A stretch of DNA of 45,131 bases from Candidatus Bathyarchaeia archaeon (GTDB lineage Archaea; Thermoproteota; Bathyarchaeia; Bathyarchaeales; Bathycorpusculaceae). The notes beneath the pieces were generated by a model. That model was not told where the DNA came from and ran no database searches. It saw only the letters and a program-made list of their open reading frames with translations. Where the stretch lies: positions 1-45,131 of the forward strand of contig JBEKSS010000013.1 of the NCBI GenBank assembly GCA_049516875.1. The letters are read 5' to 3'. The position numbers and the translations under genes were made by a program. Numbering within the stretch: the stretch's first letter is position 1; the number at the start of each line of letters is the position of its first letter. This document shows, piece after piece, positions 20,737 through 44,480 of this stretch.

Positions 20737-21309
20737 ATGGGTGAGTACCCGCTTGGAAGCGTTGAAGATCGTAAAATGCTTGAAGAGATGCCGACTCGAA
20801 GGTTGCTGGATTATCTGTTTTTGCAGGTTCGAAATCTGTGGAGGGTTGACGGCTTGTATTTTTTAGGTATCGAGAAGAAGTTTGGGACTGAAGCGGCAAC
20901 CGAAATTGATGCAGGCGTGTGGGAAGCTATGGCTGCGATTGAAGCTAAGAGCCTGCAGAAAATGTTTCAAGTCGACGAAAATCCCACTGTTTCAAAGATT
21001 ATAGGTCTCCTGTGCAAGTCAAGCTGGGCTCTGGATCAACCGTTCAAAACCGTTGAAGTAAACAGCAAGCGGGCGGTGTTATGGGTGAATCGTTGCAGGA
21101 CACAGGAAACACGCTTGAACAAAGGACTACGCGAATTTCCATGCAAAAAAGTCCGATTTGGCTATCTGAAAAACTTTGCAAAAGCACTGAACCCAGGAGT
21201 GGAAGTAAACTGTTTGGTTTGTCCACCAGACCAGCATCCTAAAGACTCGTGGTGCAAATGGGAAATAACATTAGCATTTTCAGAATCTACACTAAACAGC
21301 GCGCGCTAG
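20737..21309 (+). CDS. DUF6125-type hypothetical protein (V4R/ATC-hydrolase-like)
   Basis: W.VDGLYF..IE..FG.E.A..ID..VW, CRTQ..R, FPC, C..CPPD.HP...WC.W. Confidence 0.75.
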   Translation: MGEYPLGSVEDRKMLEEMPTRRLLDYLFLQVRNLWRVDGLYFLGIEKKFGTEAATEIDAGVWEAMAAIEAKSLQKMFQVDENPTVSKIIGLLCKSSWALDQPFKTVEVNSKRAVLWVNRCRTQETRLNKGLREFPCKKVRFGYLKNFAKALNPGVEVNCLVCPPDQHPKDSWCKWEITLAFSESTLNSAR

Positions 21310-21360
21310 TCTTTATTAGTCATTACGCGTAGACTAGTTAGAAAAGGGTGAGCATACAAA

Positions 21361-22632
21361 ATGAAGTCTTTTGACGCAGGTTCGGCGTATCGCTTTATGG
21401 AAAAGCTTGTCAAAGAGATTGGAAACCGAGAATCAGGAACGGACTCGGAGCGCAGAGCAGCGCAGCAAATAAAGATGTGGTTTGAGGAGCTTGGACTTGC
21501 CAACGTTAAAATGGAAGAGTTTGATGTCCAGACAAGTCTTGTCTTAAGAGAAGAAGCCTCGCTTCCAGACGGCACGCGAGTTGCATGTGCAGCTGTCGGC
21601 AATTCGCTGTCAACCACGCCGGAGGGCGTCGAAGGGGAAGCGGTTGTGCTGGAGTCAACGTCACAGGAAGCGCTGAGAAAAATCGAGAACAAGATCGCCG
21701 TTTTGAGCATAGTTCTCAATCAGAAAGATTTCTTCAAGATCTTGAAGACTAAGCCTCTAGCTTTGATCTATCCTTCTCGAACACCCTTGGCGCCCACCAC
21801 TTACCGTTCTGTCAGTGCTGAATTTGTTGAAAAGGAGAACGTCCCGGCCGTATCGATGGCCCACGATGACGTGCTGGACATGTTGAAAGGCCCGAAAAAA
21901 CTGAAAATAGTCACAGAATTGAAGAAAGTGACCGCTAAGAGCCAAAACGTTTTGGGCGAAGTGCCCGGCGTTCTTGAAGACGAGGACATACTCGTAGGCG
22001 GGCATTATGACACTGTGAGAAGTGTCGTGGGCGCACATGACAACGCTGCGGGAACAGGCCTCGTGCTCGAACTGGCCAGAATTTTTGCCGGTGAAAAACC
22101 GAATCGCACGCTTAGGATTGTAGCGTTTGGCTCCGAGGAGCTTGGACTGCGCGGTTCGTTCCATCATGCCGAGAACCCCGAGAACACCAAGAATCTCAAG
22201 CTCTGCCTTGACTTCGATGTTCACGGAATACTTCTGGGAACGTTGAGCGCCGTCGTTTTGGGCCCAGAAGAGTTAAAGTCGTATCTGTGTTTCACGGCAA
22301 AGGAGCTTGGAATACCTCTCCAAGCCACTAGCGACTTGGGAATGGGAGGCTCAGATCATATGCCCCTGGCCTTTTACGGTGTTCCTTCCATCATGCTGTC
22401 ACGTGTAGGAGGGGCGGCCCAAATAATGCACACGAACCTCGAAGACCTGCGATGGTGCGGTCCGGAAGCGTTTATCCCTGCGGGTAAGCTGAGCCAAACA
22501 CTCTTGGATCGTTTGCTGAGAGCTGAGGAACTGCCGTTTGAGAAAAAGATGCCGGACAACGTTGCCAAAGCGCTTGAAAAGAGGTTCGAAGATTCAGGCA
22601 TCAAGAAGAAGGTAAGAGAAGGAGCACGGTGA
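21361..22632 (+). CDS. M28-family aminopeptidase with PA insert
   Basis: GGHYD, GAHDNAAG, FGSEELGL.GS, D, SDH, H. Confidence 0.9.
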   Translation: MKSFDAGSAYRFMEKLVKEIGNRESGTDSERRAAQQIKMWFEELGLANVKMEEFDVQTSLVLREEASLPDGTRVACAAVGNSLSTTPEGVEGEAVVLESTSQEALRKIENKIAVLSIVLNQKDFFKILKTKPLALIYPSRTPLAPTTYRSVSAEFVEKENVPAVSMAHDDVLDMLKGPKKLKIVTELKKVTAKSQNVLGEVPGVLEDEDILVGGHYDTVRSVVGAHDNAAGTGLVLELARIFAGEKPNRTLRIVAFGSEELGLRGSFHHAENPENTKNLKLCLDFDVHGILLGTLSAVVLGPEELKSYLCFTAKELGIPLQATSDLGMGGSDHMPLAFYGVPSIMLSRVGGAAQIMHTNLEDLRWCGPEAFIPAGKLSQTLLDRLLRAEELPFEKKMPDNVAKALEKRFEDSGIKKKVREGAR

Positions 22633-22672
22633 CGCGCGCGACACAAATCCTCAGATAAAGAGGATGTAGATA

Positions 22673-23728
22673 TTGACCGATGATGTTTATGAGCGACTTG
22701 CGAAAGCCTTGGACAGACTGCCGAATGGATTTCCAAGAACACCTTCGAACGTTGAGATACGAGTTTTGAAGAAGATATTCTCACGTGAGGAGGCGGAGCT
22801 GGCAGGCCAGCTAAGCGGGTCCGTGGAACCAGTCAACGTGATAGCAAAACGCATCGGACTCTCGGCCGAAGAAACACAGGAGAAGTTGACTGGAATGGCT
22901 AAACGCGGGCTCTTGTGGCACGATGAGCAAGACAGAAAGTTGTTCTTTAGGCTGGCTCCCTTTGTTGTCGGAATTTACGAGGCACAGCTAGAAAGCATGG
23001 ATCACGAACTGGCACACTTGATCGAAGAATACTTGGCAAACGGCGGAGCAGCCGGAATCATGAAGCCTCAACCAGCCATACACAGAGTCATCCCCGCACA
23101 AAAAGCCGTAAAGTCGGAGTGGATACTCCCCTACGACGATGTCAAAGCTATACTCCTCAAGGCTAAAACGTTTCGCTTACGCGATTGCATCTGTCGGAAG
23201 CAACAGGATCTAATCGACCGCAAATGCACTTTTCCGCTCAGAACCTGCCTGGGATTCTCCTCGTTCGAAAGCCCTCCTAGCCAGTACACCATTTCAAGAG
23301 AAGAAGCATTGGCCTTTCTCGACAAGGCCGAGGAAATGGGCCTTGTTCACACGGTCAGCAACGTGATGAAAGGGATAGGCTACGTCTGCAACTGTTGCGG
23401 CTGCTGCTGCGGCATACTCAGAGGAATCAACGAGTGGGGCATAGAATACTCTGTAGCTCACGCCAACTACTACGCTGTCATCGACCCAGATGAATGCGTG
23501 GGATGCGGAACGTGCAGAAAAAGGTGCCAAGTGCACGCCATCTCCGAACAAGACGAAGTGTCAGTCGTGGACACAAAAAGGTGCATCGGCTGTGGCCTGT
23601 GCGCTACAGGATGCCCAAACGGTGCAGCAAGACTCAGGCGAAAACCCGAAGACGAAACCGTCAATCCCCCACAGGACTTCGCCACATGGGAGCATGAACG
23701 CCTGCACAATCGAGGCCTGAGCGCTTGA
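22673..23728 (+). CDS. 4Fe-4S dicluster protein with N-terminal HTH and CNCCxCCC motif
   Basis: CICR, CNCCGCCCG, CVGCGTC...C, CIGCGLC...CP. Confidence 0.88.
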   Translation: MTDDVYERLAKALDRLPNGFPRTPSNVEIRVLKKIFSREEAELAGQLSGSVEPVNVIAKRIGLSAEETQEKLTGMAKRGLLWHDEQDRKLFFRLAPFVVGIYEAQLESMDHELAHLIEEYLANGGAAGIMKPQPAIHRVIPAQKAVKSEWILPYDDVKAILLKAKTFRLRDCICRKQQDLIDRKCTFPLRTCLGFSSFESPPSQYTISREEALAFLDKAEEMGLVHTVSNVMKGIGYVCNCCGCCCGILRGINEWGIEYSVAHANYYAVIDPDECVGCGTCRKRCQVHAISEQDEVSVVDTKRCIGCGLCATGCPNGAARLRRKPEDETVNPPQDFATWEHERLHNRGLSA

Positions 23729-23769
23729 ACTTAGCGCGTGGTTCACAGAAGAGGGAAAGCCTGTTTTTT

Positions 23770-24591
23770 CTATGAGCTCTGGCTGATTTTTGCTATTGCC
23801 ACCAAGCCGGTTAAGACACTGCTGTTTAGAAAAGTGAGTTCTTTACCAGAATCCAGCAGAATCCTCGTGTGAAACGGCGTGAGTTCCTTGACCACACCTT
23901 CCTGATTCATGTAGGTCGTGTATATTCTGTCGCCCAGAGAGTATGGAAGTCTGCCTCGTACAGGTGCATCGGAGGCGGGATACGTCGTGACAATCACTCC
24001 TCCCTGAACTATAGCTGTGTTTGGAATTACTATCAGACCTCCGATGTCATTCTTTATTCTAGTTACCATGGCCGTTATCTCTTCCACCTTGCCGGGAACA
24101 TTGTTCACCGTAACAATGTCTCCTACTTTGAACGGATGTGTCATCAGCACCAGTGTCCCTGCAAGAATGTTGCCGACAAACGTGGATATGACTAGACCGA
24201 TAACTATTGACGCGATACCTCCTCCCAGTAACAACGTGGTTGGTGAGACCTGAAATATGTCAAGCGAAGCCAAAACCATCACGATGGCGACGATAAGAAT
24301 CATGAAGATTTGGAAGATTGTGGCGACATGGACGCCGACATATCTTGACAAAAGGGGTCTGTACCGCCTGATCAAAAAAATGATAATGAAGCCGAAAGCA
24401 ACAACTATCACCGTCTTTGCAGTCTGGGCAATCAACGTGGCTAGTTGTATCCTTTGGGCAATCAATCGGGCAGCAATCAATTGATCAAACGTGAGCACAA
24501 GGCCAAACGCCACGACTATAAGTAGTGCAACAACCAGCACAAGCCTTCTTACGGAGCTTACAAAGTCTGCCAACTCTATTCCACCGAACAA
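23770..24591 (-). CDS. MscS-family mechanosensitive channel
   Basis: GL....VGNILAG, PFKVGD, G.VEEI, IPN. Start codon uncertain. Confidence 0.85.
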   Translation of the reverse strand: MFGGIELADFVSSVRRLVLVVALLIVVAFGLVLTFDQLIAARLIAQRIQLATLIAQTAKTVIVVAFGFIIIFLIRRYRPLLSRYVGVHVATIFQIFMILIVAIVMVLASLDIFQVSPTTLLLGGGIASIVIGLVISTFVGNILAGTLVLMTHPFKVGDIVTVNNVPGKVEEITAMVTRIKNDIGGLIVIPNTAIVQGGVIVTTYPASDAPVRGRLPYSLGDRIYTTYMNQEGVVKELTPFHTRILLDSGKELTFLNSSVLTGLVAIAKISQSS

Positions 24592-24777
24592 ATCTATGAT
24601 GCATCTCTTGTTCTATAGTTTTTCTGTGGAGCAGATGCGCATATCTTCCAGAGCGGCTTCTAAGAAGCTCAGAAGGAAGATAGCCTTGCCTCGGATGTCT
24701 TCACATGCACGCAATTCTATGATATGTCGTTCTAAGAGTCTGGAAAAGACAGGCATGAGAAAGAGAAGAGGGAGGCT

Positions 24778-25308
24778 TCAATATTCTCCGATATCTTCTC
24801 CAACTTTATGATAGAAGCCTTTTTCGCCGACCCATTTGAGAAGGAGTCCATCCTTCCAATCGTAGCCCTCGCGAACATGGGTTGCAAGAACCTCTCCAAT
24901 GAACCAAACATGGTCTCCGACTTCTACCACTTGAACAACTTTGCACTCAATGTTCAAAGGGCTTTCCTCGATAAGCGGCGCGGAGACCCTGCTCCCTGGA
25001 ACCGCAGTTAGCTTCGCCAACTCGAACTTGTCCACGTCCTGTCCAGAGTTTTCCCCGCAAATCCTGACAGCTTCAACCAGCTTCTCATCAATCACGTTGA
25101 CAACGAAAGCCATGCTTTTTTGAATGAGCCCATAAGAGAATCTTGATGGTGCTATGCCTATGCCAACCAGAGTCGGTTTTCCAGAGAAGTAAGCAAACAT
25201 GCCGATGCTGATTATATTTTTCTTCCTAGAATGTTCACACGATACCAGGTACACGGGCCGAATCGGCAACTTTCCAAGACTTTCTTGGACCGAAGTCTCG
25301 CTCTTCAT
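24778..25308 (-). CDS. Flavin reductase family protein
   Basis: PVYLVS, FVVN, CG..SG..VDKF, APLI.E.P..IECKV, GDH..FIGEV. Confidence 0.9.
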   Translation of the reverse strand: MKSETSVQESLGKLPIRPVYLVSCEHSRKKNIISIGMFAYFSGKPTLVGIGIAPSRFSYGLIQKSMAFVVNVIDEKLVEAVRICGENSGQDVDKFELAKLTAVPGSRVSAPLIEESPLNIECKVVQVVEVGDHVWFIGEVLATHVREGYDWKDGLLLKWVGEKGFYHKVGEDIGEY

Positions 25309-25497
25309 AATACATCAAAACCTCCAGTTTGTTTTATCTTGAATTCTTTATAAAGGGCTTCGGCTGTCGATTTTCCCTTTTGGCTGGAAAAATGTCAACC
25401 TCGACCGCGGGCAGAGACCCACTAGCGCGCGTTGCGGCTGTTAGCTTTGAATACCTTGGAGAAGGCTATATTTACCTCTCTTACAAGTCTTTGGCCT

Positions 25498-26922: not shown

Positions 26923-27007
26923 AACTATGATGCGCATGAAGCACTAACCCCTATTACTGGTCTTGGGTCCAAGTTGGGAGAACTTCAATCCAGGCGCGCG
27001 CCGGGGC

Positions 27008-27998: not shown

Positions 27999-28658
27999 AT
28001 GTCGTTCATACCCTTTACAAGAAACTTCGCCGACAACAGCACGGAAGCAGGATTTCAATTCACATTCTTCTGCGACGTCTGCCAAGACGGATACAAAACA
28101 GCCTTCGCCGAGTCAAAAACCTACAAGAAAGCAGGTCTCCTGCGTGGCTTGGGCAGAGCCGCATCCTTAGGCTCATCAGTCCTGGGCCGAAGCGGAGGAT
28201 ACGAAGCCGAAAGCGGGGCCGACATCATCGCCGAAAGATTCCAAGGGATGTCCCCTGCATGGCACAAAGAGCACGAGGAAGTCTTCAAACTGGCCCAAAA
28301 CGAAGCCATGGGACACTTCCACAAATGCCCTAAATGCCAAAAATACGTAGATGACACGTGCTGGAACGACGAAGACGGACTCTGCATAGAAGACGCTCCA
28401 AGAGTCGCCACCGAAATAGCGGCCGCAAGAGCCAACCAGATGAAAGAGCAAATATGGAAAAAGGCAGAAGAAACCCAAGTCTTCACAGGCGAAATCAAAC
28501 CCACACAAACAATATGTCCCCAATGCGGAAAACCAGCAGGAGCAGGCAAGTTCTGCACAAACTGCGGAGCCCCACTTGACATGTTAAAGTGCTCAAAATG
28601 CGGAGCACAGAACCCACCAGGCACCAGATTCTGCGGAGAATGCGGAAACAAACTCTAG
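27999..28658 (+). CDS. Zinc-ribbon domain protein with C-terminal double zinc ribbons
   Basis: GFQF.F.CDVC, CPKC...CWN...LC, CPQC, FCTNCG, CSKC, FCGECG. Confidence 0.88.
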   Translation: MSFIPFTRNFADNSTEAGFQFTFFCDVCQDGYKTAFAESKTYKKAGLLRGLGRAASLGSSVLGRSGGYEAESGADIIAERFQGMSPAWHKEHEEVFKLAQNEAMGHFHKCPKCQKYVDDTCWNDEDGLCIEDAPRVATEIAAARANQMKEQIWKKAEETQVFTGEIKPTQTICPQCGKPAGAGKFCTNCGAPLDMLKCSKCGAQNPPGTRFCGECGNKL

Positions 28659-28714
28659 ACCATAACAGCAATTGCAAAAACACGCGCGCAACAAAAGGCC
28701 AGAAAGAGATAAAA

Positions 28715-30055
28715 TTGGAAAATAAGGACGAGGAAGAAGACAAAAGTGTAATTCAATGCTCCATGAGCTATACGCTTCTCGACGAAAACGGTAAACAAAC
28801 AGCCGCTGGCGATTGTAAAGGAACACTAAATAAGGAATATCTCACTGTATATCCAAAATTCGGCGACATTCTACCTTTTCACCTGAGAGACATAAACCTG
28901 ATCGAAACAGAAAACTACCGAATCACATTATTGATGTCTTCAAGAGAGGAGCTTATCCTATCCAATTTGGGCTATTGCTTCGAAGACTTCCAGAGAGTTC
29001 TTTCGGATCTTAGGAATGAAGTGATAATCAAGGACCTGCTAATGAACGAGACTGTCCGAAAACCTGATGTCAACATGGAATTCACTTGCACCGATGAAGA
29101 GGGAAAAGAAAAGCAAAAAGGCCCCGGGAAAATTCGCCTCTACGAAACCGGCCTAGTTATAATCCCTCAAAAGGGCGAAGTTCAACGAGTGCCCTACAGC
29201 GACATCATTAGCGTTTCGGAAGAAAACTACACCATCAAGGTCGGAACAGAACAGGAAGAACAATTCCTCTTCCAGAAAATGGGCTCCGAATTCGACCCCT
29301 TCCTCAAACAACTCTCAGACATCTACAACGAACTGCAAACCAAAGCAGTTTCCTCGCTAAAAACGCTCTATCCAGCAATAGATTCTGTCTCGCTCAGAAA
29401 GGTAGCAGCAATCATGAGGGAAGGAAAAGCCGCCAAACGAGCAGACATAGAAGCAATTAATCCAAAATTGTGGCGAGAACTGGAGAAGAAAATAACCTCC
29501 GCTGGACTGAATGACGCGTACACTTTCTTGAAGGAATTAGGCAGGCAAGAGAAAATAGCCATAGGCTTCAAACGCGGCCTAATGGGCGACCTAACCGGCG
29601 AATACATCTGGTTTTTAATACCCATTTACGGCACGGTTGAGAAGGGTTACGGGAACGCTGTCGCCATGGAGGCAACAGAAGCAAGCGGCGAGGAGAGCAC
29701 TGGAAAAGCCACTTACTTCTTCAGAATAGTCAGCAGAAAGGACTATCCAACTCTCAAAACGCCTGAGCAGCTCGACAGCGAGGTGGACAAACTCATCAGA
29801 ACAATAAACAGGTGCATGCTCGACATCAACTTTCGAAGAGAACCCATATACCTCCCGGACGAGAGGCTGGACGACGCCGACTACGTCAAATATAGAGTGG
29901 CTCTGAGGAGAATCCCATCAGTACAGCTTCTCAGAAACCTCTACGTAGGAAGAGTAATACACGCCTCGCTCGAACAGTGGAAAAACGACGTCAAGGACCT
30001 TCTCAATTTGAGCGTGACAACCCAAGACGACTCGACGAAGTGGAAAAAACAATAA
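28715..30055 (+). CDS. Hypothetical protein with two tandem PH-like repeats
   Basis: Long ORF with a visible internal repeat of about 104 aa. TTG start chosen downstream of the previous stop. Confidence 0.8.
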   Translation: MENKDEEEDKSVIQCSMSYTLLDENGKQTAAGDCKGTLNKEYLTVYPKFGDILPFHLRDINLIETENYRITLLMSSREELILSNLGYCFEDFQRVLSDLRNEVIIKDLLMNETVRKPDVNMEFTCTDEEGKEKQKGPGKIRLYETGLVIIPQKGEVQRVPYSDIISVSEENYTIKVGTEQEEQFLFQKMGSEFDPFLKQLSDIYNELQTKAVSSLKTLYPAIDSVSLRKVAAIMREGKAAKRADIEAINPKLWRELEKKITSAGLNDAYTFLKELGRQEKIAIGFKRGLMGDLTGEYIWFLIPIYGTVEKGYGNAVAMEATEASGEESTGKATYFFRIVSRKDYPTLKTPEQLDSEVDKLIRTINRCMLDINFRREPIYLPDERLDDADYVKYRVALRRIPSVQLLRNLYVGRVIHASLEQWKNDVKDLLNLSVTTQDDSTKWKKQ

Positions 30056-30193
30056 CAAGACCCATCCTCGGCTCATCTGAAAGCGCGCACACCAATGTGG
30101 CGCTTTCAAAGAGAACAAATCAACTAGCTTCATCTTCTGATCCAAAGCAAGTGTTAATAGGAACAGAGAAGAACTGAATTTTGTTGATGGACT

Positions 30194-30667
30194 TTGGCGA
30201 AAAGGAAGACGTGGTGTGAAAAACTTCAAGACAGCAAAGACCTGCCCAGAGTCGAGAAAATCACTGAGAGGATGAGCAAGAAATGGGGAACAGGCACAGT
30301 GGTCATTCCAGCACCCATAGAAGTTGATGAACTAATGAAAAAAGTGCCTGAAGGAAAGTTAACCAACATAAACCACATTCGAGAGGCACTGGCCAAAAAA
30401 CACGAAGCCACAATCGGCTGCCCTATCACCACTGGTATCTTCGCTTCGATCGCAGCCCACGCAGCAGAAGAACAGAAACAAAAAGGACAAAAGAACATCA
30501 CGCCTTACTGGCGCACTCTCAAAGTCGGCGGTGTCATAAACGAGAAATATCCTGGCGGCACTGAAGAACAGAAGAAACTCCTAACAGAAGAAGGGCACAA
30601 AGTTGTGCACAAAGGCAAGAAATGTGTTGTAGTCGACTACGAGAAATCGCTGACAAGATTCCTCTAG
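30194..30667 (+). CDS. MGMT-family alkyltransferase-like DNA-binding protein
   Basis: VPEGKL.....R, CPITTGIF, PYWR in place of PCHR, YPGG...Q..LL..EG. Confidence 0.82.
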   Translation: MAKRKTWCEKLQDSKDLPRVEKITERMSKKWGTGTVVIPAPIEVDELMKKVPEGKLTNINHIREALAKKHEATIGCPITTGIFASIAAHAAEEQKQKGQKNITPYWRTLKVGGVINEKYPGGTEEQKKLLTEEGHKVVHKGKKCVVVDYEKSLTRFL

Positions 30668-30774
30668 TGCTTACCTGCGCCTGCACTAAAGAACAGGAAA
30701 GTGGGTTGTGCGGGAGAAATCGCCTCAGTATCAGGTTTTGAGACATGTTTAATGCATGAAAACGGGAAAACTCT

Positions 30775-30960
30775 TCATATTTTTCTTTCAGAAATAGCGG
30801 TTGCTACACTTTTGATGAGTTGTGGCAATTTCTTGTAGATTCTGCGTTTTCTTTCAGCATCATAATCAGGCATTTCGTCAAGGAAGCTCTTATGCGCAAC
30901 TGGATTGTCAGAAACAACGTGAGAAGATGAGACTTTGAAACCTGCTTTAGTAGCTTCCCG
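30775..30960 (-). pseudogene. C-terminal gene fragment, possibly nucleoside-phosphorylase-like, cut at a GCGCGCGC motif
   Basis: EATKAGFKVSSSHVVSDNPVAHKSF...helical tail resembles the V-V-S-D C-terminal strand and helix of PNP/UDP-family enzymes. No matching N-terminus is present. Confidence 0.35.
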
Positions 30961-31118
30961 GCGCGCGCTACGTGCAAAGGTTCCGAAGTTCCTGAAAAAT
31001 GTCCAGTTTGCGTACATCCAAGCTACTATGAGGTCTGGTGCGAGAACTAATGAACAGACAATCTAGAAGTTCAAAATTCGAAAGTCGCAGATTAAGAAAC
31101 TAATGGATACAGCGCGCG

Positions 31119-32601: not shown

Positions 32602-32724
32602 GACGTGCCCAATCAAAAGGTATTGATGGAGAAAATAGGCAGCAAAGAGACTTGGAACAGAAAAGGACTATGGAGTGGCGAACGGAAAGAGCAATCTAAC
32701 ATTAACGCGAACGGGGAATGGTTT

Positions 32725-33003
32725 ATGAAAATAGTGGAAGGCTGGAGAAGAATAGACAACCAGAGAGGATACATAAATGCGATAACAGGACAGAATCTTG
32801 TTGTCACAAAGAAACAGTATGGAGAACATTACTTGGCACTGCTGTTTCCTGAGGTAAAAGATGATTGTGAGGGAAAGAAAATATCGCCCGAGTTTCCGAC
32901 GGAATCCAAAGCGGAATCATTTGCTATGGATTGGATGAACAAACATCCAAGGGGACTAAATGAACTGCACGCGCTGTCAAGTGACCAGCGTCAGCACTCT
33001 TAA
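32725..33003 (+). CDS. Hypothetical protein
   Basis: MKIVEGWRRI...A..FA.DWM.KHP.G. Overlaps the feoB 3' end by 27 nt. Confidence 0.65.
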   Translation: MKIVEGWRRIDNQRGYINAITGQNLVVTKKQYGEHYLALLFPEVKDDCEGKKISPEFPTESKAESFAMDWMNKHPRGLNELHALSSDQRQHS

Positions 33004-34908
33004 TGCGACTCCGCCTAGAATTATTGCAAAAGCTATTTCAAACAGGGTTATGAACAGGGCTTTCTTCCCGCCAAACTCTCTGACCAGAGCGGAGATAGTC
33101 GCCACACAGGGTATGTAAAACATTGCCACCAGGGTGAAGACGACCATCTGAACCGGTGTCAAAGCCTGCAAGCCCGTTGGAGCAAGAAGGGCGGCGAGCA
33201 AAATCAGCGATAGTTCCTTCCTCAGCACACCGAATATCAACGTTATGCCCGTGATAACCGGCAATCCGAGCCACGCAACAGTGACGGGGCTGAGCAGGTT
33301 TGCAACCGGGTTCAACAAGCCAAAAACATCCGCGGCCTTTATCACAAGGCTCCCAACAACTATCAACGGAAAAGCTATCTTTATGAATTCGGCCAACCTG
33401 AACCACGTCTCCTTCAACACCGTCTTCAGGTCAGGCATCCTGTAATCAGCCATCTCCATTATCAGAGCGCTCGGTTCACCCGGCAGTACTCTGAAAGCCA
33501 ACCGACCAAGAGCAAAGATGACGAAGAGGTCAAAGACATAGAGGACCAAGGCCCACTGAATGCCGATAAACCGACCCACTAAACCAAGTATGATGACCGT
33601 TCGCGCGGCGCACGGCACGAGCGTCGTCACAAACGCGGCGAGGGTCCTTTCTCTTTGCGTTTCCATTATCCTACAGCCGAGGCACGCGGGAACGTTGCAG
33701 CCGTAGCCAAGCATGATTGGAATGAACGCTTTTCCGTGCAGCCCTATCTTGTGCATAGCGTTGTCCATGAGAAACGCTATCCGGCTCAGGTAACCCGAGT
33801 CCTCCAAGAAGTACAGCACGATGTAGAATGGAATTATGTAGGGCAAGGCCACAGTCACGCCTGCTATGAGCCCCTCTGCGACGCCGCCCCAGACGAGGCT
33901 GCCCACGATTCCTGTTCCAAACAGGTTCGTGGACAGGGGCTCCAGTCTGTTAAGGAGGTTGCTCAGAAGGCCTGAGGTGTAATTCCCGAAGGTGAAGATT
34001 GCGTAAAAAATCAGAAGCAGCGAAGAAACCATGATTAGGTATCCTGCGATTCTGTGGGTTGTGAGGTTGTGAAGTCTCTCCTCCGCAGTTGGTTTCAGCG
34101 GGGGCACGAGCTTCTGAGCTTGTCGGGCAACGCGGCCAGCGGCTTCGTACCGCTCGGAGGTTATTACAGTTGAGCACGCGTGGCCGTGGAGATTTTCGAT
34201 TTCGCCAGCAAGCTCTTTTGCTGTGTTCACAACCTGGGGGGCCAGTTTGGCTATCTCTCTTGCGATCTCCTCGTCACCCTCCAGCAGTTTGATCGCCACG
34301 TATCTCCTCGGATAGTAGAATTGAACGCCTTGAAGCGTTTCGGTGATCTTTGCGATTCTTTCTTCGACTTCCTCCCCGTACCTCACCTCGCGTCTCGTGG
34401 TCTGTCCCTTTTCGATGACCTTAATCGCCATTTCCAGAAGTTGGGATATGCCTATTCCTTTTGTGGCAACGGTTTGTACCACTGGCACTCCCAGTAGCTG
34501 CTCCAGCTTCTCAGTGTCGATTTCTATGCCCTTCCTCTTAGCGATGTCCATCTGATTCAAAGCCACGATCATTGGAGTCTCGAGTTCCATCAACTGCAGG
34601 GTGAAGAACAGGTTTCTCTCGAGGACCGAGGCGTCCACGACGTTTATCACGAGGTCGGGCCTCTCAACCGCTATGTATTTTCTGGAGACCAGTTCCTCCA
34701 GAGAATAGGTGGAAAGAGAGTATATGCCTGGAAGATCAACTATGTCTATCGTGTAACCTTTGAAGCTGAGCGTCCCCTCCGCCCTTTCAACGGTTTTCCC
34801 AGGCCAGTTCCCGATGTGCTGATGCAAACCGGTGAGATAGTTGAATATGACGGATTTTCCGACGTTCGCGTTTCCTGCCAACGCGAAAATCAGTTTCTTC
34901 TGGGTCAC
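32977..34908 (-). CDS. feoB: Ferrous iron transporter B
   Basis: [58 protein letters not shown]. Confidence 0.97.
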
Positions 34909-35621
34909 TCTTTTTCAGCCTCAACGAAGATTATCTCGGTCATGCCCCTGCCAAGGGCCAGTCTTGAGCCCCTTACGAGGATTTCCAGGGGGCCGTGAAA
35001 CGGGGCTGACTTCACAACAGTCACCTCCGTGCCAGGGGTAAGGCCCATGTCAGAGAGCCTTTGCAGAACCTTGTGCTCTCCTCGTATGAAGGATACTTTG
35101 CCACGCTCGCCCTTCTTGAGTTGGTCTATCGAGACAGGGATAAGCTCTCGTTTTCCAGATTCCTCAAGGTCCTTCTTGTGCAGTTCTACGCATTCCTCGC
35201 AGGTCGAAAATGGCAGGTCACAGGCTGGAATAATCTTGTCGTCGTCTGGGCACCGGTCGGGGTGTTTTAGAAATCGGCAGAGGGACTCTTCGGCCTCATC
35301 AGAGAGGGCGTGTTCCATCTCACATGCTTCTGAGTGAACTCTATCCTCCCTTATTCTTAGGATGTCATGCAGAAACCGTTCCAGCAACCTGTGCTTTCTT
35401 GTGACTTTCTCGGCGACTTGAAAACCCTTGCGAGTAAGGCGGGCCCCGCGATACGGTGAATATCTCACATAACCTTTGTTGGCAAGCTTCTGCAACATCT
35501 CAGTCACACTTGCAGGTGCAATCTTGAAATGCTCTGCAATCTCGGTCGTGGATGTAGATTTTCCGTTTCTAGAAAGAATGTAAATCGCCTTCAAATAGTC
35601 TTCAAGGCTCTTGCTCGACAT
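34905..35621 (-). CDS. DtxR/MntR-family metal-dependent repressor fused to a FeoA domain
   Basis: EDYLKAIY, PASVTEML, R.HRLLE.FL, EAC.MEH.LS; C-terminal FeoA RL.DMGL.PG...AP..GP...VRG..LAL. Confidence 0.94.
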   Translation of the reverse strand: MSSKSLEDYLKAIYILSRNGKSTSTTEIAEHFKIAPASVTEMLQKLANKGYVRYSPYRGARLTRKGFQVAEKVTRKHRLLERFLHDILRIREDRVHSEACEMEHALSDEAEESLCRFLKHPDRCPDDDKIIPACDLPFSTCEECVELHKKDLEESGKRELIPVSIDQLKKGERGKVSFIRGEHKVLQRLSDMGLTPGTEVTVVKSAPFHGPLEILVRGSRLALGRGMTEIIFVEAEKE

Positions 35622-39346: not shown

Positions 39347-39880
39347 TTAAAGAAAAGTGGAGGTTTTTGGCAGCGCTTTTCTCTGAGAACGTTTTGTCCT
39401 GTAAACAATGGCGGCCAGCAACGTCGCCACTGCAAAGAGCGGCAGGATGATAAGGGATGGAAACTCTGGCACCGTCTGGTTCACTGTAAACATGCCGAAC
39501 ATTATCGAGGGGTGAAAATTACAGCGGTACGTGAAGTTTCCGCTATTGGTTGCGTTAAATCCGAAAACAATGGTTCCTGAAAACTGTTGAGACGTGGGTT
39601 CACCCGCATCGGCAACGCTGTTATTGTTGTAATCGACAAAGAATTGATGCGGGAAGCCGTCTTGGCTTACGAGAGTTAAGTTCACATAATCGTTTTGAGT
39701 AACCGTGATAGTGGGTCCTGGACTACTGATATTATTGCTTGCAAAAGCCCAACCTCCGCCCGCAGAGCCGTAAAGCCTGAAATTCACTGTGTCTGCCTTC
39801 ACTTTTTCAGTATTGCCTGCCATCCCCAACGTTGCTGCAACAAGTGCTACAATCACAAGGAGTATAATCTTTCGAGACAT
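39347..39880 (-). CDS. Secreted type-1 blue-copper (cupredoxin) protein with PEF-type C-terminal sorting signal
   Basis: Signal peptide; PGPTITV; ligands H (PHQF) and YRC..H...M; VPEFP followed by a TM helix and basic tail. Confidence 0.85.
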   Translation of the reverse strand: MSRKIILLVIVALVAATLGMAGNTEKVKADTVNFRLYGSAGGGWAFASNNISSPGPTITVTQNDYVNLTLVSQDGFPHQFFVDYNNNSVADAGEPTSQQFSGTIVFGFNATNSGNFTYRCNFHPSIMFGMFTVNQTVPEFPSLIILPLFAVATLLAAIVYRTKRSQRKALPKTSTFL

Positions 39881-40109
39881 GTAATCACACCCTCTTTTGT
39901 AATCAAATGCACTGCGTGTGCTCTATCCAAGTTGCCTAATAGAATTCTATGGAATCGAGAATATAAATCTGTGTGACTGCTGGCCCACTGCAGCAGGCTT
40001 GCCAGTTCAGAGTTCGACGAAAATGTAGTACTCCTTCACAGTGTGTCATTATACTCCACGCGGACTTTTGGTCGGTTCTTTGAGCGCGCTCTCGAAACGC
40101 TGAGCGCCG

Positions 40110-41381
40110 TCAAGGTCTTCTCCTTAGCAGATACAAGAGCGAGACGGCAACGATGGCGGCTGCTGAAACAATCCATGATTCCATGGGTAATGAGAACATC
40201 AGAATGACGCAGCTAGCCAGTCCGAGAGAAGGAACCAGAGGGTACAAGGGAACTTTGAATGTCTTCAGGTTGGGAATCTTCTTTCTGAGTCTTATCGCGG
40301 CAGAGTGTAGGATTATATGAGTGGTGAGCATTGAGAAACTCGTTATTGCGGCCGCTTGTCTCAGATCTGAGACGAATGCTAGGACCGCCATCAACGCTCC
40401 AGTGATAAGGATGGAAAGGTACGGTGTTCCAAGTTTCGAGTGGATTTTCGCCAAGGATTTTGGGAACTGCCCGTTTCTTGCCATCGCAAACGAAACTCTG
40501 GATAGACCAAGCAGGTTTGTCAAAAGCACGCTTACAGTGGCAACAAGGGCTCCAAACGAAACGGTTGCAACTACCGCGAAGTTTCCAGTCGCCTTCGCAG
40601 CATAAGCAATCGGTGAGCCCGATCCAAATTTCGCAAGATTTCCGGAGTCCACCAAACCCGTCGCGACGAGGCCTGTCACGACGTACAGGATCATGGACGC
40701 TGCCAACGCGAGGAGTATCGCTAGGGGCAGCGTTCTCTTCGGGTTCTCTACTTCCTCGCCGAGGGCCGCTATTCTTCCGAAACCCAAGTACGCGAAGAAA
40801 ATAAATCCGGCCCCCTGAAGGATTCCGAAGAAGCCGTTCGGGGCAAAATTAGAATAGTTCTGTGGGTTCACATGAAAGACTCCGACCCCGACAAAAAAGC
40901 AGAGGATCACGATTTTTATCACGACTAAAACGTTGTTGACTCTGGCTGAATGTTTCATTCCCATGAGGTTCAAAACCGTCAAAGCCAACGCGGCTGAAAC
41001 AGCAACGATTTTCACCGGAAAGAACGGAAACAAACCTACAAAGTAGCTTGCCAATCCCAAGCAGACAGCTGCCCCTGCCACGGTTTGTGCAAACAGCCAC
41101 ATGCAACCCGAAATAAACCCTGCGAAAGGATGGATCATTTCATACGCAAACTCGTATGTTCCTCCTTCTTTCGGAATCGCCGAGCTGAGTTCGGAGAAGC
41201 TGAGCGCAGTGAACAAGGCGACCGTTCCTGCGATAATCATCGAAACGATAACCGCCGGACCCGCATAGCCCACGGCAATGCCCAGCACGACGAAAATTCC
41301 TGCACCGATTATTGCTCCGATGCCAATCGAGGTGGCATCGAAAAGGTTAAGAGTCCTCTTTAACTCCACCGTTTTCCCCAC
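40110..41381 (-). CDS. APC-family amino acid permease
   Basis: GAIIGAGIF, EL.S.IP..GG.Y, FFAY.GF, EE..NP.R.LP, SR..FAMAR.G..P. Confidence 0.93.
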   Translation of the reverse strand: MGKTVELKRTLNLFDATSIGIGAIIGAGIFVVLGIAVGYAGPAVIVSMIIAGTVALFTALSFSELSSAIPKEGGTYEFAYEMIHPFAGFISGCMWLFAQTVAGAAVCLGLASYFVGLFPFFPVKIVAVSAALALTVLNLMGMKHSARVNNVLVVIKIVILCFFVGVGVFHVNPQNYSNFAPNGFFGILQGAGFIFFAYLGFGRIAALGEEVENPKRTLPLAILLALAASMILYVVTGLVATGLVDSGNLAKFGSGSPIAYAAKATGNFAVVATVSFGALVATVSVLLTNLLGLSRVSFAMARNGQFPKSLAKIHSKLGTPYLSILITGALMAVLAFVSDLRQAAAITSFSMLTTHIILHSAAIRLRKKIPNLKTFKVPLYPLVPSLGLASCVILMFSLPMESWIVSAAAIVAVSLLYLLRRRP

Positions 41382-41695
41382 AACGAATCTGAAAACGGTT
41401 GTACTTATAACACATTCTGTGACCAGCGCGCTAATTTCGGAATTTGCTTTAAGCCTTTCTGAAGTGACTCGCGATTAGTTTTTTGCTGCTGGATTCCTAT
41501 CTCCTGATGGTTGCCCAAAAAAAGTCTATAACATTATGGTTGTCAATAACAATAACCCGAAACTGCGTATTCAGGTACATACTATTGAATTTTGAATCCA
41601 AGTCTGGGTTTAGGAGCAGAAATCAGGTCAATTGAGCCTCATCTTGAATACGTAAAAGGTTTATACTAAGAACTTGCAATGGTGAAGACACACAA

Positions 41696-42004
41696 ATGAA
41701 GGATTCCACTATGAGACGTTCTAAACTCGAGATGTACGTTGACATTCTCAAAGCGTTGGCTCATCGAGGACCCTTGAAACTAACGCATATAATGTACAAA
41801 GCAAACGTGAATTGTAGCGTTCTGAGAGAGTATCTGGACTTCTTAATCAAACAGAATCTTGTTGAAGAAAGAAATGTGGGAAAAAGTAGAACAGTCTTTG
41901 CTATAACTCAAAGAGGCATAACGGTACTCAAGTACTTCAGGGAACTGCAACAAATATTGCCAATCATTGAAGAAACAAGAAATATGGTCTCAACACCTAT
42001 TTGA
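41696..42004 (+). CDS. Archaeal winged-helix transcriptional regulator
   Basis: RRSKLE...DIL, T.IMYKAN.N, YL..L....L, IT.RG. BRE/TATA AAAAGGTTTATAC at about 41654-41666. Confidence 0.88.
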   Translation: MKDSTMRRSKLEMYVDILKALAHRGPLKLTHIMYKANVNCSVLREYLDFLIKQNLVEERNVGKSRTVFAITQRGITVLKYFRELQQILPIIEETRNMVSTPI

Positions 42005-42235
42005 TTTCATTCGGATCCAGCATTCAGCGCGCGCTTATCCTAGCGGTTCAAGATTTCACGTTGCTCTCATAAGTCTTAATCACATGCTCTCTTAGATTTC
42101 TGCACACTGGGATAGCCGGCTCAAACGATAAGTGCCGATTCTGCCTGAATAAGCCTTCTGATATCAGCAGATATTACCAGCGCGCGCAAAAAAGCATGGA
42201 ACGTTAATTGGCTTTTTAGGAATTACTAAAAAATG

Positions 42236-42299
42236 GTTTGGAACAGGTTTGTAACAATATTTTGGAACAAAAGCATGGGAAAAGCCGTTGTTTGTAACT
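42236..42299. repeat. Four TTTG(G/T)AAC direct repeats
   Basis: GTTTGGAACA 42236, GTTTGTAACA 42247, TTTTGGAACA 42260, GTTTGTAACT 42290. Confidence 0.55.
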
Positions 42300-42480
42300 T
42301 AGCGCGCGCGAAGCTAGAAAAGATCTTGGTTTTGCTGTGGATAAGATTATGCCTGCTTGTTGCGGTATACTTCGAAAACGAAACGCTGTTGAGGAAATAG
42401 CTGGGGGCATGATGGCCAACGGATCGTGACCCCAAATGCTATTAGGGGCTCGTAAAATACTTTGAGAACAGGTGGCCTGT

Positions 42481-43419
42481 TTGGCGTCGCATCCTGTCTT
42501 GAACGTTTCCACCCTGACGAAGTATTACGGGAACTTCAAGGCCTTGGACTCGGTTTCCTTCACGATCGACGAAGGCTGTGTGTACGGTTATCTCGGGCCA
42601 AACGGGGCTGGCAAAACAACCACTATAAGAATTATGCTGGGGCTCCTTAAGCCAAGTCAAGGGGAAGTTCAGATAGCTGGAGCAAATCCATCGAAGGATC
42701 CTGTTCATGCGCTCCGATCTGTTGGGTACGCTTCGGAACTTCCTGTGCTTCAACCTTTCTTCACTGCAGAGCAGCTGCTTGACCTTATGGGTAGAATGTT
42801 CGGGTTGCCTTCGCAGATCAGAAAAGAAAAGGCCAAGTCGCTCCTCGATCTTGTAGGTCTGAAAGAGTGGGCCAAGAAGAAGATAGGGAGCTACAGCAAG
42901 GGGATGGTTCAGAGACTTTCTGTCGCCGTTGCCCTCATCAACGATCCAATTATCCTGATTATGGACGAGCCTACCATAGGCATGGATCCAGAGGCTACAG
43001 CTCACTTCAGAAGTCTTTTCACAAGTCTTTCAAAGGAGGGCAAGACCATCTTTATTTCGTCTCATCTTTTGGACGAGGTTCAGCGAATCTGCACTCACAT
43101 TGGAATGATAAACAAGGGAAAAATCGTTTTCAGCGGCCCAATCGAACAGGTTTTGGACGCTTTCACTCAGCGATGGGTGGTGGAGGCCGAGCTCGAAAAA
43201 GTGACCGAAAACATAGTTTCAAGTCTCAAAGAGCTCGAGTCTGTAAACGACGTTAGAGTAGAAGAAAACAAACTGATAATAGAGCTGAAGGAGAAAAAGG
43301 ATGTGAGAGGCGAAATTTCTTCTGAAATCTTCAAGCAACAAGGCGTGTTGCTGAGCCTAAACCTCCACAAGGTTACGTTAGAAGACGTTTATTTCCAAGC
43401 TCTAAAAGGAGGTCAATAG
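42481..43419 (+). CDS. ABC transporter ATP-binding protein
   Basis: GPNGAGKTT, YSKGM.QR, DEPT.G.DP, SSH.L.EV. Confidence 0.93.
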   Translation: MASHPVLNVSTLTKYYGNFKALDSVSFTIDEGCVYGYLGPNGAGKTTTIRIMLGLLKPSQGEVQIAGANPSKDPVHALRSVGYASELPVLQPFFTAEQLLDLMGRMFGLPSQIRKEKAKSLLDLVGLKEWAKKKIGSYSKGMVQRLSVAVALINDPIILIMDEPTIGMDPEATAHFRSLFTSLSKEGKTIFISSHLLDEVQRICTHIGMINKGKIVFSGPIEQVLDAFTQRWVVEAELEKVTENIVSSLKELESVNDVRVEENKLIIELKEKKDVRGEISSEIFKQQGVLLSLNLHKVTLEDVYFQALKGGQ

Positions 43420-43420
43420 C

Positions 43421-44233
43421 ATGGGTGCGCTTGGAAGGATTGGCACTATTATTGGCTATGAGTGGAGGAGAGCCCTAGCCAAAAAGAAAATTCTCGCTCT
43501 TGTAATTCTGGCCATAGCATTTCAAACATTGGTAACAGTTGGTATTTATGAGGCGTATCGGTTTATAGGCACGACGTTCTTGGGCAGTGAGAATGTCTTC
43601 GTGTGGATTTTAGTCGTGCTGGAAGGCCTGCTGTTTGTTCAGTTAATAGCCATCATAGTTGCTGGTGGTTCAATGTCTGAAGAATATGAACACGGAACTG
43701 CTGACGTGTTGCTCTCCAAACCGATTACTCGGCTTGAGTACATTCTCGGGAAGTTCTTGGGCGGATTCTCTTTGTTGGCCATGGTTGAAGCCTTGATAAC
43801 CTTTGTAGGCGTAGCCCTTTCACTCGTGTTCTTTGGTGCACAGAGCGGTCTGCAATTTGCTCCGTTAATGTTTTTGGCCATTGTGTATTCTTCTCTCATT
43901 TTCTTCTGTTTATCGTTCATGTTCAGCGAAGTCTTCAGAGGAACTACTCTCGCAATGCTGTTAGCCTTGGCAATACTTTTCGCTTCATATATTATAAGCC
44001 CGATCTTAACCTTTGTCTACGGCATAAGCACACGGGCCATTCCAATATGGGCCGCAACAAGCTTCCCATCGCTTGTCATGAGTGAACTGGTAACTGCATC
44101 CAGTGTGCTTCCTGCAGCTGACCTTGGGGCTCTTTCCCAAGCGGCGTTGATTATAGCCCTCTACACTATTGCATTTGTTCTAATAGCAGTGTACAGGCTT
44201 CTCAAGTCGGATGTTGCAAAGAAAACAGCCTAA
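43421..44233 (+). CDS. ABC-2 type permease
   Basis: SEEYE.GT...LLSKP.TR....LGKF; about 6 TM segments. Confidence 0.9.
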   Translation: MGALGRIGTIIGYEWRRALAKKKILALVILAIAFQTLVTVGIYEAYRFIGTTFLGSENVFVWILVVLEGLLFVQLIAIIVAGGSMSEEYEHGTADVLLSKPITRLEYILGKFLGGFSLLAMVEALITFVGVALSLVFFGAQSGLQFAPLMFLAIVYSSLIFFCLSFMFSEVFRGTTLAMLLALAILFASYIISPILTFVYGISTRAIPIWAATSFPSLVMSELVTASSVLPAADLGALSQAALIIALYTIAFVLIAVYRLLKSDVAKKTA

Positions 44234-44480
44234 ATGCGCGCGCTAGAGTGAAAGCCCCAACAATCTGGATATGCCCAAAGGTCCAGAGCATTCTCCAAAA
44301 AAAGTCACTAGGTCAAAAATGCCCGAAGGATCGACATGTTTTACGGTCGATTCAAGGTCAGCCTTATAAGAAGCTCCTCTTCTTAGGCAAGGGGCAAGGC
44401 TACAGTATGAAAGGGAAAGAAGACGCGACCAACTGTTTTGCCAGACATCATTAAGGTGCGCGCGCGTGTAAGGAATTGCT

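Follow-up and report, generated by a model that had tools for sequence, protein, structure and literature searches.

Introduction

Repetitive extragenic palindromes (REPs), known together with bacterial interspersed mosaic elements (BIMEs) and REP-associated tyrosine transposases (RAYTs), are imperfect hairpins of 20–40 nt linked to Y1 transposases. Here we study shorter palindromes, runs of alternating G and C built on GCGCGC, in a 45,131-nt stretch of DNA from a Candidatus Bathyarchaeia archaeon. This stretch, hereafter the window, is the whole 45-kb contig C13 of the 2.43-Mb, 20-contig genome G000, one of five genomes (G000–G004) of a single Bathyarchaeia genus that we compared, in a set of 31 genomes, with 26 genomes from 25 other genera. 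The runs occur beyond chance and are probably tied to a genus-specific family of insertion sequences and miniature inverted-repeat transposable elements (MITEs), and we lean slightly towards reading them as scars, that is, as the outermost GCGCGC tips left behind by this family of cut-and-paste transposons.

Short palindromes are also a feature of two other described systems. When Tc1/mariner/IS630 elements excise, the donor keeps a few terminal bases of each end, which gives a short palindrome between two TAs, as described in part of PMC2170065. The cyanobacterial HIP1 (GCGATCGC) is, according to parts of PMC4390886 and PMC5861425, a hugely over-represented, lineage-specific GC-rich palindrome of 8 nt that lies within and between genes, is conserved across genomes and has cognate methyltransferases.

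The Bathyarchaeia runs resemble each of these systems in part. With the IS4/IS5/IS1182 group and MITEs, the associated elements share a single DDE_Tnp_1 gene between terminal inverted repeats over about 1.1 kb, derivatives of 165–240 bp, TA flanks of 2 bp, a large number of lineage-specific insertion sites and confinement to a single genus; they differ in transposases that score below all NCBIfam family cut-offs, in a tip that is a 6-nt alternating GC palindrome, and in solitary tips that outnumber recognisable ends about 25 to 1. The form TA(GC)nTA recalls Tc1/mariner/IS630 footprints, which arise in a known system with TA target duplication, but the transposase here is not of the DDE_3 type, 3–5 bases per end would be needed rather than 2–3, and TA is missing on a given side of most solitary runs. 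As with HIP1, an 8-nt palindrome is hyper-abundant (198 intergenic 8-nt runs against 6.4 expected), whereas the motif here is 13-fold intergenic, decays neutrally, matches transposon ends and comes without any C5 methyltransferase that we could find. Integron attC sites and cassettes likewise involve a short repeated sequence at gene boundaries in accessory DNA; unlike attC, an imperfect palindrome that extends over tens of nt, the runs have no such extension, the motif fails to bracket most gene indels, and no integrase was seen in the window, although none was searched for. Finally, REPs and BIMEs are likewise abundant extragenic palindromes tied to a transposase family, but the palindrome here measures 6–10 nt without extension and the linked enzyme is a DDE transposase.

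Results

GCGCGC runs are over-represented between genes

GCGCGC is the most over-represented hexamer of G000: a maximal-order Markov model predicts 1848.5 copies over both strands, and 2824 are present (z = 22.7). Maximal runs of alternating G and C that reach 6 nt or more number 1123 in the genome. The excess is specific to one phase: GCGCGCGC occurs 212 times against 28 for CGCGCGCG, and GCGCGCGCGC 48 times against 8 for CGCGCGCGCG. A preliminary description of the window, made from its sequence alone, had noted an A before and a T after the runs, and this holds genome-wide, since the 212 maximal GCGCGCGC runs are preceded by A in 72% and followed by T in 64% of cases (T at −2 in 41%, A at +2 in 43%). 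It had also placed them in intergenic DNA. With genes called by a purpose-written crude caller (2275 genes, 80% coding), GCGCGC proved 13 times denser between genes than within them (1067 intergenic, 335 coding and 10 on a boundary), whereas five GC-rich control hexamers gave intergenic-to-coding density ratios of 0.5–1.6.

In the 478,604 bp of intergenic DNA we counted 198 runs of 8 nt, against 6.4 expected from an order-1 and 47 from an order-3 model, and 43 runs of 10 nt, against 0 and 8. Lengths fall off sharply above 10 nt (three runs of 11 nt and one of 12 nt), and only 5 runs exceed this size. Odd-length runs (108, 96 and 28 of 577) are as frequent as chance extension of a 6-nt core by its flanking bases would make them, and other dinucleotide alternations are not enriched; runs of (AT) of 8 nt, for example, number 9. 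TA stands on both sides of 19 of 280 8-nt cores, the background for TA being 5.1% per side, and 79 of 772 run flanks are similar to another locus.

Run density is 2.19 per kb in convergent, 1.61 in tandem and 1.38 in divergent intergenic regions, with a mild enrichment 0–60 nt past stop codons and a depletion 0–40 nt upstream of start codons. No palindromy was detected beyond one position on either side of the run, complementarity being at background (0.24–0.30) from position 2 outward, and no extended hairpin was found around the runs. A terminator, which the preliminary description had listed as an alternative, was considered and rejected: tracts of at least five T lie within 40 nt of only 22 (upstream) and 19 (downstream) of 248 oriented runs, which amounts to no T-tract association, and divergent, convergent and tandem regions all carry runs.

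Other repeated words were seen along the way. The palindromes GATCGATC (33 intergenic, 13 coding) and GAGTACTC (47 intergenic, 18 coding) are over-represented and about 10-fold intergenic, and may be tips or targets of other elements. A dispersed GGGG(T/A)AAAGTTTTATC motif with (GGTTT)n-like repeats around it stands in 15 run flanks (for instance at C1:80887, C9:112827 and C12:69713 of G000). Its 8–10-mers are among the most over-represented words of this genome, and the motif may represent a promoter or a further family of small repeats.

GCGCGC forms the tips of a transposon and MITE family

Alignment of the run flanks revealed a recurrent sequence after GCGCGC. In G000, 34 run-bearing termini read GCGCGC-ATGCKTGTTCCKAAAWTGG or GCGCGC-TGGCTTGTCCC and match a 60-nt element end, and 27 of them are preceded by TA. 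These termini belong to terminal inverted repeats of the form GCGCGC-ATGCKTGTTCCKAAAWT or GCGCGC-TGGCTTGTCCCTAAA, usually flanked by TA, in which GCGCGCATGCKTGTTCCKAAAWT... is inverted at both element ends. The element tip measures exactly 6 nt at all 34 run-bearing termini and is the same in variants whose transposases are 46% identical. TA at 27 of 34 termini may be a target-site duplication, yet we found no clean pair of occupied and empty sites with a single TA, and the hexamer itself could be the duplication.

A complete element of 1093 bp is present at locus L245, where it reads TA-GCGCGCATGCGTGTTCC...GGAACAGGCATGCGCGC-TA and encodes a 328-aa transposase (L245:5668-6654) that matches DDE_Tnp_1 (84.4 bits) and DUF772 (39.7 bits), both above cut-off. 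An intact full-length copy, 88% identical, lies on G002:C7 (ORF 99693-100676, end matches at 99619 and 100700), and a 46%-identical paralog at G000:C7:36835-37806 scores 52.5 bits for DDE_Tnp_1 and has the ends GCGCGC-TG(G/C)CTTGTC. Paralogs of the transposase occur in all five genus genomes at 44–50% identity or better. The enzyme is related to IS1182 and IS5 but can be filed in neither, because its scores (149 bits for IS1182, 99.7 bits for IS5_4) remain below the curated NCBIfam cut-offs of 270 and 140. An undescribed system, in a window without a recombinase, was what the preliminary description had envisaged; the DDE transposase between GCGCGC ends at these three places speaks against it.

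Non-autonomous miniature copies of 165–240 bp accompany the insertion sequence. Among short inverted pairs of 181–185 bp in G000, 7 of 8 have TA on both sides, and of 162 run pairs 100–300 nt apart, 17 have inner arms that are at least 60% complementary, against 0 in the outer control. Larger end-bounded segments (G000:C1:76833-78803 and others on G000:C4, G004:C3 and G004:C2) have no transposase among their ORFs, which comprise one HTH_45 protein, one that is helicase-like by eye, and others that remain unnamed.

An IS630/Tc1/mariner identity was rejected: DDE_3 occurs in 2 of 31 genomes, the copy on G004:C58 has no GCGCGC ends, and the linked transposase is of the DDE_Tnp_1 type. That contig (L165, 1927 bp) has identical first and last 127 nt, looks circular or repeat-collapsed, and carries a 348-aa high-GC IS630-type (DDE_3) ORF; it seems unlike the rest of the G004 genome and may be contamination or a separate mobile element.

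The motif abounds, and the element end is found, in one genus among those searched

The 10-mer AGCGCGCGCT occurs 98, 29, 87, 69 and 115 times in G000 to G004 and 0–9 times in each of the other 26 genomes (reversed control, 0–6), so that the motif is abundant only in the five genus genomes among the 31 searched. The element-end 17-mer GCGCGCATGNNTGTTCC follows the same pattern, being found in 5/5 genus genomes (34, 4, 22, 3 and 43 termini) and in 0/26 others. The element end was also present in more than 116 stretches of the species genomes scanned, nearly all labelled Bathyarchaeia. A literature search for the motif in archaea or Bathyarchaeia gave nothing specific.

No C5 cytosine methyltransferase (PF00145) scored above cut-off in G000–G004, where one sub-threshold match of 19 bits was seen; N4/N6 methyltransferases were not searched. 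G000 has a complete, bacterial-type non-homologous end-joining operon at C9:90149-93943 (L160:6149-9943), which encodes a LigD primase-polymerase (285 aa), Ku (269 aa) and an ATP ligase–3'-phosphoesterase fusion (466 aa), followed by DUF72; the PolDom-Ku-ligase/phosphoesterase part spans 90883-93943. Ku is present in 4 of the 31 genomes (G000, G002, G004 and G010), and PolX polymerase had no match above cut-off in the genus.

Runs mark variable DNA

The G004 data comprise 814 kb, with reciprocal best hits to G000 for 499 of 780 genes (median amino-acid identity 86%). We counted 15 runs in the 23.8 kb of intergenic DNA whose gene adjacency is conserved between G000 and G004, whereas the 87.6 kb at synteny breaks hold 149, and the share of intergenic regions that bear a run rises from 4.6% where adjacency is kept to about 35% at breaks. 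Within regions of 60–400 bp, density was 0.41 (conserved) against 2.13 per kb (breaks) for tandem (Fisher p = 7e-5), 0.38 against 1.78 for divergent (p = 0.11) and 1.52 against 3.70 for convergent regions (p = 0.27).

G002 and G004 align at about 95% identity over 259 kb. The 36 collinear gaps between them have 144 junction sides. Runs are touched by 14 of these, where random intergenic positions give a null rate of 1.6% and gene ends one of 0.6%, so that structural-variant junctions touch runs about six times more often than random intergenic positions; 13 of the 36 variants have a run at most 2 nt from a junction. In one, G004 has exactly GCGCGCGC in place of 146 nt of G002, and a 6.9-kb G004-specific segment has runs at both junctions. 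Non-coding DNA of G004 that aligns to G002 contains 0.65 runs per kb (26 in 40,257 bp) and that in gaps 2.96 per kb (58 in 19,576 bp), a 4.6-fold difference. Polarising the 36 variants with G000 was mostly uninformative because its intergenic DNA is too diverged. Of the G002 runs away from alignment ends, 44 of 69 are unchanged in G004, the neutral expectation being 0.95^8 = 66%. Among all sequences of the data set, 57 distinct comparisons at 90% identity or more gave no run-versus-gap allele of at least 6 nt.

Gene remnants lie on 80 flank sides of 479 intergenic runs in G000, and 12 of the 65 remnants found wholly on one side of a run end within 6 nt of it. Together with the intergenic bias and the concentration at synteny breaks, this position at the edges of inserted, deleted or replaced DNA bears out the part of the preliminary description that tied the runs at variable gene boundaries to mobile DNA, as its site or its scar.

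Some variable segments have features of their own. The flanks of G004:C3:163347-165370, compared with G002:C6, resemble the halves of a tRNA gene (...GGTTCAAATCCGG...CCA), which suggests an element inserted in or beside a tRNA gene. A 6-kb G004-specific insertion that starts with a complete MITE contains a gene for a 245-aa Zn-ribbon protein (L025:17884-18621, G004:C1:117884-118621) with a sub-threshold Phage_integrase match (18.5 bits) and an adjoining ORF of 1393 aa; homologs of the Zn-ribbon protein were found neither in G000 nor in the parts of G002 searched.

Elements and solitary runs occupy the same sites

Twenty-seven termini lie in the G004 and G002 DNA examined. Seven have a matching outer flank in the sister genome, and at three of these seven a solitary run stands in the sister where homology ceases; on G002:C6, the G004 run sits exactly where the tip of the G002 element is. 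For the more distant pair G000/G004, 11 termini were informative and 3 of them have a run within 15 nt, whereas the control positions gave 10 of 251. Nine distinct comparisons with flank identity of at least 93% fell into three with a shared element, three with a solitary run at the exact site and three without a run. Two of the three run-less comparisons concern one allele that retains ACGCGCAT, 8 nt like the element tip, and element remnants thus do form. Insertion is polymorphic: an element end stood at the matching place in the other genome at 0/7 and 0/11 termini, and was shared in 3/9 at 93% identity or more. A single GCGCGC occurs exactly where another genome has GCGCGC-element-GCGCGC, for instance in the pairs L073 versus G000:C15:6345 and G000:C15:11591 versus L131; the right flank of the L073 copy lacks TA.

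Runs in the window

The window contains 28 overlapping matches of GCGCGC, against 11.09 ± 3.02 in 100 dinucleotide-preserving shuffles, and 10 of GCGCGCGC, against 0.58 ± 0.82; neither count was reached in any shuffle. A regular-expression search gives 18 maximal runs where the preliminary description had counted 17 containing GCGCGC, so its number was short by one, while the runs as such are real and beyond chance. Its ten runs of at least 8 nt (1075, 21299, 22633, 26994, 30961, 42027, 42180, 42302, 44236, 44458) are where it had put them, two adjoin stop codons as it had said (21299, run then TAG; 22633, TGA then run), and AGCGCGCT does occur at both 40083 and 41425. The features are as follows, with the strand where one applies.

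125–131: GCGCGCG run, outside the range covered by the earlier finding
1075–1084: GCGCGCGCGC run; the blastx match of a gene remnant stops 1 nt away
14303–14309: CGCGCGC run within coding ORF 14120-15403 (minus strand), sole GCGCGC run of the housekeeping block
21299–21306: GCGCGCGC run in the last codons of a DUF6125 gene, then TAG; the G004 alignment stops 13 nt earlier
22633–22640: CGCGCGCG run directly 3' of the M28 peptidase TGA; the G004 alignment resumes 8 nt later; identical in L128
25425–25431: GCGCGCG run; the G004 and G002 alignments begin at it or just past it
26994–27001: GCGCGCGC run between convergent genes; the same gap has a run in G002 and none in G004
28683–28689: CGCGCGC run in the 5' part of ORF 28589-30055
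30083–30088: GCGCGC run after ORF 28589-30055
30316–30966 (plus strand): replaced stretch of 651 nt, the 3' two thirds of gene 30194-30667 plus intergenic DNA
30961–30968: GCGCGCGC run, right edge of the replaced stretch and truncation point of the gene remnant to its right
30969–31050 (plus strand): C-terminal gene remnant, truncated at the run; full 195-aa ORF in G004
31112–31118: GCGCGCG run; a contig from dataset run X12 matches the window only from 31112 on
40084–40089: GCGCGC run (AGCGCGCT) downstream of permease gene 40110-41381 (minus strand); GCGCGT in L128
41426–41431: GCGCGC run (AGCGCGCTA) upstream of the permease gene; the G002 alignment stops 3 nt earlier
42027–42034: GCGCGCGC run, 23 nt past the stop of winged-helix gene 41696-42004 (Pfam HTH_45)
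42180–42187: GCGCGCGC run; a contig from dataset run X5 shares the window only from the next base
42188–42301: non-coding repeat between two runs, of a dispersed repeat family; weak match to the element-end interior
42302–42310: GCGCGCGCG run (TTAGCGCGCGCG), end of the 42188-42301 repeat
44236–44243: GCGCGCGC run, 3 nt past the stop of gene 43421-44233; GCGTGCGC in L128
44458–44466: GCGCGCGCG run, 15 nt ahead of ORF 44481-45131

The preliminary description had seen only one GCGCGC run in the housekeeping block at 2.8–20.7 kb, and indeed there is a single one, at 14304, in a gene. By crude gene calls, this block has 1085 non-coding bp without a non-coding run, and the 20.7–45.1 kb part has 4765 non-coding bp with 13; the contrast between core and accessory DNA is not significant within the window alone, as about 1.7 runs are expected in 1085 bp (genome: 768 runs in 478,604 intergenic bp), and becomes so only at genome scale. 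ARAGORN found no tRNA genes in the window.

The metagenome contig L128 is 98.3% identical to window 22578-44915, and its sole structural difference is that 30316-30966 is replaced by about 251 unrelated nt. The replacement starts with CGCGCGCGC and holds a second GCGCGCGC, and a contig from dataset run X5 has the same joint; its source was sought in G000 and not found. On the left, the junction in L128 (...CAGCAC/CGCGCGCGC...) cuts gene 30194-30667, which aligns at full length among the window, G004 and G002. On the right, the window reads ...CCCG GCGCGCGC/TACGTGC..., followed by the last ~24 codons of the 195-aa G004 ORF, with window 30979-31047 corresponding to residues 171-194 at 83% identity. 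Contigs of other datasets diverge from the window at 31112, 42187 and 44244, each of which is a run edge; at the last of these, which belongs to the run at 44236–44243, the diverging contig is from dataset run X4, and a duplicated gene fragment begins 4 nt past the run.

Further observations concern neighbouring sequences. The repeat at 42188-42301 belongs to a family of ~120-nt sequences, found in 8 G000 flanks in all, with several TGTAACA / TTGTAACAG copies, ending in CTTA beside a run, and may represent another non-autonomous element or operator sites. Small HTH_45 winged-helix genes adjoin a run (window 41696-42004) or an element end (L161:2411-2806, G000:C1:78803). A stretch of 75 nt at 32722-32796 is shared with contigs of dataset runs X4, X5 and X17 that differ on both sides. 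The feoB-feoA region at 32977-35621 is 84–93% identical in many metagenome loci, L060, L061, L064, L065, L066, L069 and L073, whose flanks have no similarity to the window, and in several of them runs lie 4–73 nt from the ends of homology.

Discussion

The runs work like transposon ends and footprints. They are neither integron sites nor terminators, and they are not HIP1-like in distribution, in conservation or in a C5 methyltransferase partner. The preliminary description was therefore partly right, in that a scar or site of mobile DNA is partly supported, and wrong in kind, in that it proposed new cassette capture without a recombinase. By a small balance of probability we favour the reading of the runs as scars. 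A family consisting of an insertion sequence of ~1.1 kb (DDE_Tnp_1 plus DUF772, IS5/IS1182-like) and of MITEs of 165–240 bp would insert in many places and would be tolerated mainly between transcription units in fast-changing accessory DNA. A solitary run would be the remainder after element loss or after a break at an element end had been rejoined, namely one tip, or two partial tips joined to a palindrome of 6, 8 or 10 nt. The length series would result if self-complementary GC overhangs anneal in 2-nt registers, and the Ku/LigD end-joining operon may be what heals the breaks, some of which would be rejoined to other DNA. Insertion tolerance and the rejoining of end breaks would together make scars accumulate at the borders of genes and of inserted, deleted or replaced segments, where they would then decay at about the neutral rate. 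The anatomy of the runs, with their phase, their odd lengths, the drop above 10 nt and TA, fits tips placed head to head, each tip having six alternating bases.

A different reading takes the runs as the preferred and duplicated target of the same family. Here (TA)GCGCGC(TA) would be a palindrome cut with a 6-bp stagger, the GCGCGC at the element ends would be target duplication, solitary runs would be empty or restored targets, and runs would multiply as each insertion adds a copy that outlasts the decayed element. Preference for a short palindromic target is typical of IS5-type elements, and the single GCGCGC alleles opposite element alleles (L073/G000:C15:6345 and G000:C15:11591/L131), the missing TA on the right of the L073 copy and the G002:C6 site, where both G004 and the outgroup G000 have a run, would suit such a target. 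We nevertheless consider this unlikely and infer that element loss creates the run rather than that the run attracts the element. The 6-nt tip is constant (34/34 termini) and travels with diverged element variants, those with 46%-identical transposases included; TA, not the hexamer, looks like the duplication; and two partial tips joined would give runs of 8 and 10 nt, which form the most specific class (198 intergenic ones of 8 nt and 43 of 10 nt, where the order-1 model expects 6.4 and 0) and which a target leaves unexplained. One allele keeps element bases, and runs stand at breakpoints within formerly intact genes. Moreover, the genome has only 9 TAGCGCGCTA sites to serve as such a target, the occupied site at G004:C1:117494 has no orthologous run in G002 or G000, run pairs beyond the 17 recognisable MITEs are in small excess at 160–200 nt (46 against 25), and a target would leave the origin of the runs unexplained.

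Several points weigh against the reading as scars. Only 44 of the 1123 runs are attached to a recognisable end, so that the ~700 intergenic solitary runs would need many past events; solitary runs outnumber recognisable ends about 25 to 1, a situation of which our literature searches found no description. TA stands on a given side of 17–26% of solitary cores, against 27/34 element ends. To our knowledge, no IS5/IS1182-type element has been shown to leave 3–5 nt of each end at the donor, and the cleavage chemistry required of this transposase type is not established. Excision of Tc1/mariner/IS630 elements leaves 2–3 nt according to the relevant part of PMC2170065. A search for junctions keeping at least 8 nt of each end (GCGCGCAT...ATGCGCGC) gave 0 matches, and the 2+2 form TAGCGCTA, with 13 occurrences where the control has 27, shows no enrichment. 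At G002:C6 (~103,268), a run in both G004 and the outgroup G000 makes it more parsimonious that the run pre-existed and the insertion followed, and the lone clean pure-run indel, a 10-nt AGCGCGCGCG, lies at a site without TA. We did not detect the end-joining operon in G001 (77% complete) or in G003, which is 93% complete and has the 10-mer 69 times, whereas G010, with 1 copy of the 10-mer, does carry it; as the distribution of the operon mismatches that of the motif, it is a candidate helper only. Finally, crude gene calling underlies the coding and intergenic figures.

Three further explanations invoke no transposon scar. A dedicated recombination system with the run as crossover site for whole gene cassettes, the integron-like capture of the preliminary description, would account for the runs that bracket single genes in the window, for the 6.9-kb G004 segment with runs at both ends and the 146-nt G002 segment that is GCGCGCGC in G004, and for the enrichment at synteny breaks in all three gene orientations. 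It is very improbable. Among 54 simple gene indels (A-X-B against A-B, G000/G004), a set in which many entries reflect how genes were called and are not real indels, 35 lack a run at the junctions and at the empty site alike, and only 3 are flanked by runs on the left and the right. A run lies within 2 nt of a junction in only 13 of the 36 G002–G004 variants, there is no palindromy past ±1 for an attC-like site, runs stand at junctions where the intact ancestral sequence had none (the L128 cut of 30194-30667), and an ordinary transposon family with such ends accounts for the sequence. Selection for a signal, be it a transcription-unit boundary, a Z-DNA supercoil buffer, a chromatin or regulator site or a methylation-maintained palindrome like HIP1, could produce the 13-fold intergenic enrichment, the depletion 0–40 nt before starts and the mild excess 0–60 nt after stops. 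Yet run positions are not conserved between relatives and decay about neutrally, runs are rare in conserved intergenic regions, and they show neither T-tract association nor orientation-class specificity. No C5 methyltransferase is above cut-off in G000–G004, and HIP1 differs in being conserved and also within genes (part of PMC5861425), all of which makes a selected signal highly improbable. Alternating GC runs are generally under-represented in prokaryotes, according to part of PMC4060949, which makes the excess here unusual; the transposon link explains it.

The runs might also be filler made at double-strand breaks by an end-joining polymerase, with GC tails that let ends anneal and insertion sequences that bear the motif only because each insertion was sealed in that way. 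Runs at deletion, insertion and gene-truncation junctions, the one pure 10-nt run insertion and a PolDom-Ku-LigD operon that is rare in the group and present in three of the five genus genomes would suit this idea. However, we know of no such end-joining filler activity, the tip is fixed at 6 nt at 34/34 element ends and copied with the element, and the operon was not found in motif-rich G003 while present in motif-poor G010; we regard filler as extremely improbable. A separate question is whether the solitary (GC)3-5 palindromes are still in use, across the whole genome, as minimal recombination sites that drive gain and loss of accessory genes. Each run resembles two abutted tips and may be usable by the transposase or the end-joining machinery, and if this were true, DNA between two runs could be excised, inverted, swapped or joined to foreign DNA; this idea, which comes near that of the preliminary description, we hold to be rather improbable.

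Methylation, chromosome structure and DNA uptake are the usual contexts in which hyper-abundant short palindromes are discussed, and the present findings give one of them a testable origin in transposon tips. In metagenomes from peat and wetland, the motif could serve to mark the genus, and it could point to breakpoints when genomes of the genus are compared. If the runs are indeed scars, each would record a past insertion or break, and together they would chart the places at which mobile DNA is tolerated and rearranged in an uncultured archaeal genus. In that case they would also suggest that the rejoining of double-strand breaks, for which three of its five genomes encode a Ku/LigD operon, shapes the accessory genome of this genus.

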